From IMG/VR virus record IMGVR_UViG_2609460125_000016, positions 1 through 16,185 of that record: a stretch of 16,185 nt of DNA, one strand, 5' to 3'. Below the pieces are notes generated by a model, which was not told where the DNA came from, ran no database searches, and worked only from the letters and a program-made list of their open reading frames with translations. The stretch comes from a virus. Its lineage: Duplodnaviria > Heunggongvirae > Uroviricota > Caudoviricetes. A program made the position numbers and the translations under genes. This document shows, one piece after another, positions 14,617 to 15,324 of this stretch. Within the stretch, counting starts at the first letter, position 1. Each line of letters opens with the position of its first letter.

Positions 14617-14905
14617 TTCTTCTATCAGCTAATAATCAAAGGCATGAAGTCTATCATCCAAGTCTCAATCGATCGATACTTGCGGTAGTTGATGAGAAAA
14701 ACTCTGGCACACAAATCTTTGCACTGGATTGCAAGGCTTTGTGCTCTTCTGTGAATGTGTGGCTATATGTTTGAAGATCGTTGTGCCGTATTTGTGACAT
14801 ATATATGGCAACATCATTCATCAACTTTCTGTTTGTGCCATCAACTATATCTTAGTGAATGCGGTTAATGCTTGCTAAAACAGATAGTTATGATTGGTGC
14901 TACAG
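14617..14905 (-). promoter_or_regulatory. Upstream regulatory region of the gtr operon, overlapping the left arm of the att region
   Basis: 289-bp non-coding interval between the gtrA start and the att core; contains GATC at 14671-14674 and 14776-14779 and TTTGTG(C/A)C motifs. Assignment is positional; no promoter elements verified. Confidence 0.3.
14781..14800 (+). repeat. 20-bp direct repeat copy A (ttgtgccgtatttgtgAcat); candidate integrase arm-type site
   Basis: 19/20 identical to 14999-15018. A related half-motif tttgtgccat is also at 14832-14841. The two full copies flank the att core. Confidence 0.5.
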
Positions 14906-14951
14906 ATTCGTAATGCGAAGGTCGTAGGTTCGACTCCTATTATCGGCACCA
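14906..14951 (+). other. att core: 46-bp stretch matching the 3-prime end of tRNA-Thr(CGU) (thrW-type), anticodon loop to CCA; not a complete tRNA
   Basis: ATTCGTAATGCGAAGGTCGTAGGTTCGACTCCTATTATCGGCACCA matches the 3-prime 46 nt of E. coli/Salmonella thrW as I recall it (anticodon CGT, T-loop GGTTCGACTCC, acceptor 3-prime strand TATCGGC + ACCA). The sequence just upstream (gattggtgctacag) does not form the D-arm or acceptor 5-prime strand. Confidence 0.7.
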
Positions 14952-14965
14952 TTTAAATCAATAAG

Positions 14966-15324
14966 TTACCTCGCATTTAAGTAAACTACGTTCTCCTCTT
15001 GTGCCGTATTTGTGCCATTGCGACTTATAATCGCATCGATTTTGCTCGCGTGCTCGGTGAGATGCCCGGCTGAAAGGTGGGCGTATCTTTGAACCATTTC
15101 GAGAGTTTCCCATCCTCCCATCTCTTTAAGCGCAAGAAGAGAGACACCGGACTGAACCAGCCAGCTTGCCCAGGTATGCCTCAGGTCATGGAAGCGGAAG
15201 TTGCTAATGCCTGCCCGCTTTAACGCTCCCTTCCATGCCTTGTTGCTGTCGGTTCTCATCTTCCTTACCGCTGCTGTTTTTGTTCCGTCGCTTCGGTAGG
15301 CAGGTTTGGTGTGGACAAACACCC
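14966..15324 (-). pseudogene. int: Tyrosine recombinase (phage integrase), C-terminal catalytic fragment only; N-terminal part removed by IS insertion
   Basis: Minus-strand frame encodes ...[69 protein letters not shown]...NAR*, covering the HxxR box and catalytic Tyr of tyrosine integrases. Reading frame runs straight into the IS terminal repeat at 15325. Stop codon is 15 bp from the att core. Confidence 0.8.
14999..15018 (+). repeat. 20-bp direct repeat copy B (ttgtgccgtatttgtgCcat); candidate integrase arm-type site, inside the 3-prime end of the int fragment
   Basis: 19/20 identical to copy A; lies 48 bp right of the att core and encodes NGTNTAQ in the integrase C-terminal tail. Confidence 0.5.

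Follow-up and report, generated by a model that had tools for sequence, protein, structure and literature searches.

The window, by which we mean the whole 16,185-bp stretch of DNA analysed here, carries near its right end what looks like a phage attachment site, and the question is which kind of site this is. The original prediction read the arrangement, with gtrA on one side and int on the other, as an unrecombined attP whose phage is integrated elsewhere or episomal, or as one unit of a tandem array. Our analysis leads to a different answer. We are confident that the site is an attR, formed by an SfX-type serotype-converting prophage at thrW of S. flexneri, and that its right half is the stump of an older prophage of the same type.

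The window is the late region of a P22-like phage of the Sf6/Sf101/SfX group. Genes for ejection proteins are followed by arc/mnt, an HNH gene and the gene of a tailspike with a P22-type head-binding domain, and then, on the minus strand, by gtrX-gtrB-gtrA (Table 1). The exact GtrA protein is present in many S. flexneri chromosomes, as a lookup in public assemblies showed. The 421-aa product of the gtrX-type gene had no match in Pfam or NCBIfam; the same product is found after gtrA and gtrB in S. flexneri loci, and the name gtrX was given from the context, the SfX attP having been published (PMC3306764). A promoter scan of 14500-15100 found no promoter.

The HNH gene, an ORF at 9760-10302 (minus strand) with an HNH_3 and a weak AP2 domain, lies between arc/mnt and the tailspike gene. 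It is variable among similar SfX prophages, being present in L003, L007, L010 and L011 and absent from L004, L006, L009 and L012, and looks like a mobile homing-endonuclease gene.

Core and repeats of the attachment site

The core (14906-14951) is the 3' end of the bacterial target, and this region is annotated as attP in HK542. The anticodon loop TTCGTAA (14907-14913) is the likely overlap region. Several elements of the original prediction were confirmed. The rest of the tRNA is indeed missing next to the core: the bases to its left are not tRNA, and ARAGORN detected no tRNA in the whole window. The 20-bp repeats TTGTGCCGTATTTGTGACAT and TTGTGCCGTATTTGTGCCAT are identical at 19 of their 20 positions; a search allowing up to three mismatches found these two and no others in the window, against 0.01 expected from 200 shuffles. 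The left one lies 105 bp from the core as described, the right one 47 bp instead of 48 bp. The additional half-motif, TTTGTGCCAT, was found at 14832-14841.

Each of the 20-mers consists of two 9-bp motifs TTGTGMCRT, 11 bp apart. This motif occurs six times in the window on either strand, and five of these copies are on the plus strand within 14781-15018. A count of 0.85 was expected for the window, and six were reached in none of the shuffles.

Table 1. Features of the attachment site and its neighbourhood in window coordinates; signed positions refer to the centre of the anticodon loop
Feature	Position	Strand	Basis or remark
gtrX-type serotype-specific gtr gene, 421 aa	12062..13327	-	ORF list; right end of prophage
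gtrB, bactoprenol glucosyltransferase, GT2	13340..14257	-	PF00535, 1.2e-30
gtrA, flippase-type GtrA	14254..14616	-	PF04138
Outer P arm	14695-14769	+	Aligned with the GGGAC-bearing part of the P22/SfII/ENT47670 P arm; copies degenerate here
Left 20-bp repeat TTGTGCCGTATTTGTGACAT; candidate arm-type Int sites TTGTGCCGT and TTGTGACAT, 11 bp apart	14781-14800	+	GTGMC at -127, -116
CATCAACT direct repeat, 20 bp apart, around the third arm site	14819-14857	+	Repeat search
Third candidate arm-type site, P arm, TTGTGCCAT	14833-14841	+	GTGCC at -75
att core, last 46 nt of thrW, tRNA-Thr(CGT)	14906-14951	+	Identical in complete thrW of L021, L022, L006, L016
IHF-consensus site AATCAATAAGTTA, H'-like	14956-14968	+	Sole exact WATCAANNNNTTR match in the window
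Fossil integrase fragment, IntX-type, residues 269-386 and stop	14966-15324	-	tblastn 100% to HK542 Int; PF00589
Right 20-bp repeat TTGTGCCGTATTTGTGCCAT; two candidate P' arm-type sites	14999-15018	+	GTGCC at +91, +102; in last int codons
IS600, partial, inserted in int, extending beyond window end	15325-16185	-	99.8% to annotated IS600; IS3-family transposase

Two further elements of the P arm were observed. Among the four att types compared (P22, SfII, ENT47670 and the X-type of the window), no other piece of the P arm is as well conserved as the hairpin CTTTGCACTGGATTGCAAGG (14717-14736). At the equivalent place the SfII record has an annotated minus-strand terminator, and the hairpin may be an int terminator or a sib-like element. 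The direct repeat CATCAACT has an inverted copy, AGTTGATGA, further out (14687-14695). The CATCAACT copies are possible Xis sites, as their spacing recalls that of the lambda Xis sites X1 and X2.

The attP of phage lambda contains the arm-type sites P1, P2 and P'1-3 together with sites for IHF, Xis and Fis. Its integrase is a heterobivalent tyrosine recombinase which uses arm sites on both sides of the core, with an IHF bend between them. The site in the window shares this general logic with lambda, but the number, spacing and orientation of its sites differ, and its core sits in a tRNA gene, unlike that of lambda.

Candidate arm-type sites of IntX

The original prediction had noted that the repeats resemble arm-type sites, and comparison of their positions with those in the attP of other phages supports this. 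The att regions of the window, HK542, P22, SfII and the Cronobacter phage ENT47670 were aligned on the anticodon loop (centre 14910). The X-type sites have GTG[AC]C at -127, -116, -75, +91 and +102 and nowhere else from -260 to +200. P22, SfII and ENT47670, which use the same thrW core, likewise carry five copies on the same strand at nearly the same coordinates, with G[GA]GAC at -128, -117, -63, +91 and +102 and nowhere else in the att region; their motif is GGGAC, as opposed to GTGCC or GTGAC in the window. The two motifs of the P' pair coincide to the base between the X-type and the P22-type sites, and in the P22-type sites, too, int overlaps the P' sites. An IHF consensus is located at the same place between core and P' sites in all four att types; as the number of IHF consensus matches over the whole window is at chance level, only its position and conservation carry weight.

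The arm motif co-varies with the sequence of the Int N-domain. Residues 1-70 of Int are 94-97% identical among P22, SfII and ENT47670, whereas IntX is 60% identical to P22 Int in this part and about 55% overall. The C-terminal tail, which is encoded under the P' copies, is the least conserved part of the protein, with 42-45% identity over the last 40 residues. This argues for a constraint at the DNA level rather than at the protein level.

Unlike the core, the repeated motif is present on both arms at set distances. As the five copies stand at nearly the same positions as the GGGAC copies of the P22-type sites, they are very probably arm-type sites, i. e. five TTGTGMCRT copies which are predicted to be bound by the N-domain of IntX and arranged as in P22 attP. 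The comparison with P22 is our own sequence analysis; arm-type and IHF sites in P22 attP were reportedly mapped by Smith-Mungo, Chan and Landy in 1994.

The repeats could also owe their conservation to other causes, namely coding constraint, binding of Xis or of a host factor, or shared ancestry, while the junction would still be an attR. The right repeat does lie inside int codons (encoding NGTNTAQ), and the close relatives, being 96-99% identical, are too alike to reveal selection on the motif. Yet the left copies are non-coding and the int tail that covers the right ones is so poorly conserved, the motif changes together with the Int N-domain, and five copies on one strand match the five GGGAC positions of three P22-type attPs. 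We therefore consider it unlikely that the repeats are anything other than arm-type sites.

About 85 bases of the X-type P arm (~14770-14856) have no counterpart in P22, SfII and ENT47670, and these bases carry the three GTGCC/GTGAC copies of this arm. Since the motifs lie in these extra bases and the GGGAC copies in the outer P arm are degenerate, the alignment suggests that the arm sites of the X-type P arm were replaced by an insertion.

The chromosome to the right of the site

In its layout the site is indeed attP-like, as originally described: 14695-15324 is collinear with the annotated attP and int of free phages and of SfX. The SfX attP (U82084) shares its P arm with the window without any difference (237/237 nt, at which point the record ends), and it has the same core, H'-like site and P' repeat; the identity over 14669-15324 is 99.2%. 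The window also has the very sequence that Sun et al. 2011 (PMC3306764) give for the SfX attP in their Additional file 1C. The attP regions of HK542, HK446, HK75, mEpX2, mEp213, mEp043 and ECP1 match 14695-15324 in one piece with 96-98% identity and contain all five motif copies; in this group the site is annotated as 'attP ... similar to thrW and ptwF', 'type CP4-6'. The match to the HK542-type attP starts at 14695, and this similarity boundary marks the edge of a mosaic module.

The difference becomes apparent to the right of the P' arm. In SfX the right arm leads into the full int-xis (in record U82084, IS2 is present elsewhere in int), and the genomes of the HK542 group are those of free lambdoid siphoviruses with intact int-xis. 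In the window, the P' arm is not continuous with the prophage's own int-xis and early genes: int ends at 15324 and is followed by IS600, IS629 and yaiC. Thus the original prediction was right about gtrA on the left, but the int on the right is only the 3' 359 bp of the gene (the last 118 codons), and its truncation by IS600 had not been noted. At the int/IS600 junction (15324/15325), GGACAAACACCC is joined to TGAGGTGTACTGG. The stump has neither an N-terminal nor a core-binding domain; in relatives the int gene at the att site is full-length.

To find the chromosomal context, public assemblies were queried with the exact GtrA protein and with the exact 97-aa product of the int stump. Positions 4254-16185 of the window match the S. 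flexneri contig KN150717.1 (L007/L017) with 100% identity, and UGYS01000001.1 (L011), an independent contig of 4.5 Mb, differs from the window by one mismatch and one gap over 11.9 kb. In both contigs the rest of IS600 and IS629 follow to the right of the window, and then the host genes yaiC/adrA, proC and aroL. This agrees with the arrangement known from S. flexneri, where Sun et al. 2011 (PMC3306764) describe a "putative integrase gene", IS600 and IS629 within the interval proA-thrW-yaiC; the order IS600-IS629-yaiC matches the drawing in Fig. 2 of that paper.

In CP026799.1 (L021), a complete tRNA-Thr(CGT) gene lies beside proA and continues into sequence identical to 14906-15358 of the window. 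The identity holds without a single mismatch through the P' repeat and the int stump and across the junction with IS600. Hence the DNA to the right of 14951 is found directly downstream of a complete thrW, the very observation that had been named as speaking for an attR. The same int'::IS600 junction is present in L003, L013-L017 and L019-L021. With at most one mismatch, stump and junction also abut the SfII-type P arms of three other gtr clusters, which encode type-specific products of 486, 506 and 437 aa; 2457T (L020) is among these strains. From strain to strain, then, it is the phage that changes, while the fossil stays the same.

The int fragment itself points in the same direction. It differs at four positions (14987, 15047, 15131, 15185) from all active X-type int copies compared, i. 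e. SfX U82084, the thrW-adjacent copies in L006, L009 and L022, and the prophage's own copy (L018). Compared with the fossil copies of other strains it has no or one mismatch and no difference at the four SNP positions. The prophage's own int-xis is located 40,612 bp upstream on the same contig (L018), about one P22-like genome length away and at the expected left end of the prophage. There it is joined, through a core copy with an X-type P' arm, to an SfII-type P arm and gtrA-gtrB-gtrII. So the matching left junction of the prophage was found, but with an SfII prophage and not with thrW itself, which indicates a tandem SfII-SfX array. On the phage side of the attR the tailspike gene, gtrX, gtrB, gtrA and a P arm identical to that of SfX are all present.

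From the four SNPs, the shared junction and the host context we conclude that all DNA to the right of the crossover stems from the resident site, an origin that agrees with what is predicted for integrative recombination. The crossover can be placed only within 14906-14986. That the site looks like a complete P-core-P' is due to the att/int type which the fossil and the incoming phage have in common.

In the reading as an unrecombined attP, a single phage genome would have supplied both arms. This genome would be an episome, sit at another site or adjoin an identical SfX copy in a tandem, and the adjacent int would be the phage's own gene, hit by IS600 afterwards. The collinearity of P, core and P' with the attP of SfX and of free phages is compatible with this, and contiguous attP sequences do exist in circular records and in E. 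coli chromosomes (see below). However, it is very unlikely in view of the host DNA beyond IS600, where xis and early genes should follow, the identical junction behind a complete thrW and beside three other gtr clusters, and the four SNPs that separate the stump from the int of the prophage itself 40.6 kb upstream. The proposed episomal or elsewhere-integrated phage is therefore abandoned, and the tandem array holds only in the loose sense that the fossil is what remains of an earlier prophage at the same tRNA gene.

It is extremely improbable that the assembly is at fault, with copies of IS600 or of the att site having caused a mis-join that put an int fragment beside gtrA. The locus is rich in IS600 and core repeats, and the scaffold KN150717.1 is interrupted by a gap of 100 N within another IS600. 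Yet there is no N in the region of the window, the independent contig UGYS01000001.1 is arranged in the same way, and an analogous fossil junction exists in many finished genomes including that of 2457T.

A contiguous X-type P-core-P' was found in only four of 20,395 E. coli records (NZ_CP141750.1, NZ_LT599830.1, NZ_CM143887.1, NZ_CM142769.1). Two of these are circular 'plasmid' records of 41-48 kb, possibly episomal phage genomes, and two are chromosomes. In the chromosome of strain E10 tailspike, attP, int and xis are contiguous, which may be a genuine second-site or tandem case. The arrangement gtrA-att-int'::IS600 was not found in E. coli complete genomes (a collection without Shigella), where no match covered at least 80% of the query.

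Serial integration at thrW and its consequences

Serial integration at thrW is known to generate hybrid att sites, as in the junction of the SfI/SfX tandem (PMC3306764, Additional file 1E, 1F). In the attR of the SfX lysogen 036_X (same additional files), gtrA(X), the X-type P arm and the core are followed by a resident integrase remnant, which lies upstream of IS600-IS629-yaiC; this is the same kind of junction as in the window. The remnant at attB of strain 036 is of the SfI/SfII type (PMC3306764), ACATCATTAGTACC, and for this reason its attR is visibly a hybrid. L003, L004, L008 and L010, which are SfX lysogens with an SfI/SfII-type remnant, are alike in this respect, whereas the X-type remnant in the window mimics an attP. 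We ruled out that the fossil of the window is the SfI/SfII-type remnant of strain 036, as GTTAC is followed by CTCGCATTTAAG, which is X-type, and not by ACATCATTAG. Since strain 036 has the other type of remnant at attB, the X-type fossil is specific to some lineages.

The following history would account for the locus. An earlier X-type prophage may have resided at thrW; an insertion of IS600 behind codon 268 of its int and loss of the remaining prophage presumably left thrW-P'-int'::IS600-IS629-yaiC as the resident site. Recombination of the SfX attP with thrW would then have joined the P arm of SfX to the P' arm of the fossil and so produced the junction in the window. In this junction the left half (gtrX-gtrB-gtrA and the P arm with three motif copies, up to the crossover in the core) is phage-derived, and the right half (the rest of the core, the IHF-like site, the P' arm with two motif copies and 118 int codons) is resident. 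Last, SfII probably integrated at the thrW-proximal site. A parallel for this step is SfI, which was seen to enter an SfX lysogen (Sun et al. 2011, PMC3306764). A naive site of the form thrW-fossil-IS600-IS629-yaiC with no neighbouring prophage was not present among the recovered genomes.

Other strains show further rearrangements. A reciprocal hybrid att, in which the core connects an X-type P arm (192 nt, 4 mismatches) with a P' arm of the SfII type, was observed in 2457T (L020, near 7327) and also at 4012 in L013 and 2749 in L014. An acyltransferase gene adjoins it, and it is followed by a full SfII-type int in L020; in L013 and L014 only an integrase ORF of 241 aa was called. In L021 the segment 7443-9892, which comprises a gtr cluster, a P arm of the SfII type and a full-length intX, is inverted against the IS600 of the fossil, likely by an IS600-mediated inversion at the thrW locus.

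The intX of the prophage itself (L018, 9235-9797) is split by a second IS600 after codon 222, and the 100-N gap lies inside this IS. With its own int split and a stump that retains neither the N-terminal nor the core-binding domain, the junction is probably inert in this strain unless IntX is supplied in trans. IS600 thus interrupts both X-type int copies, each at a different codon, and the prophage is probably unable to leave the chromosome.

Much of this locus has been published before: the SfX attP, the target thrW, the resident int remnants with IS600 and IS629, and the hybrid att sites from serial integration. The attP is, moreover, already annotated in several coliphage records. What we add is minor, namely that the attR mimics an attP in those S. 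flexneri lineages whose resident remnant is X-type, and that five arm sites of IntX are predicted. For annotation, this advises caution at tRNA hot spots of serial prophages, where the supposed "host" flank may be left over from a phage with the same type of integrase. Local sequence may then not suffice to tell a prophage end from an unrecombined attP, and the two are separated only by the neighbouring context and by comparison at the level of SNPs. The five arm-type sites are a testable prediction for the SfX/HK542-type integrase, a system that has been used for chromosomal integration vectors in Shigella.

Two more speculative ideas, which taken together we rate as rather unlikely, concern the use and the origin of the site. 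First, the attR may be able to act as a chromosomal attP, since it has a complete P-core-P' with intact arm motifs and an intact IHF site. If so, IntX provided in trans by a superinfecting SfX- or HK542-type phage could recombine the attR with the thrW-proximal core copies. Such recombination would be integrative and independent of Xis; one or both of the tandem prophages would be deleted in one step and the O-antigen serotype would be switched. The second idea, independent of the first, is that the X-type attP may be the trace of a natural change in arm specificity, which would have shifted from GGGAC to GTGCC through the insertion of ~85 bp in the P arm and substitutions in the P' arm.
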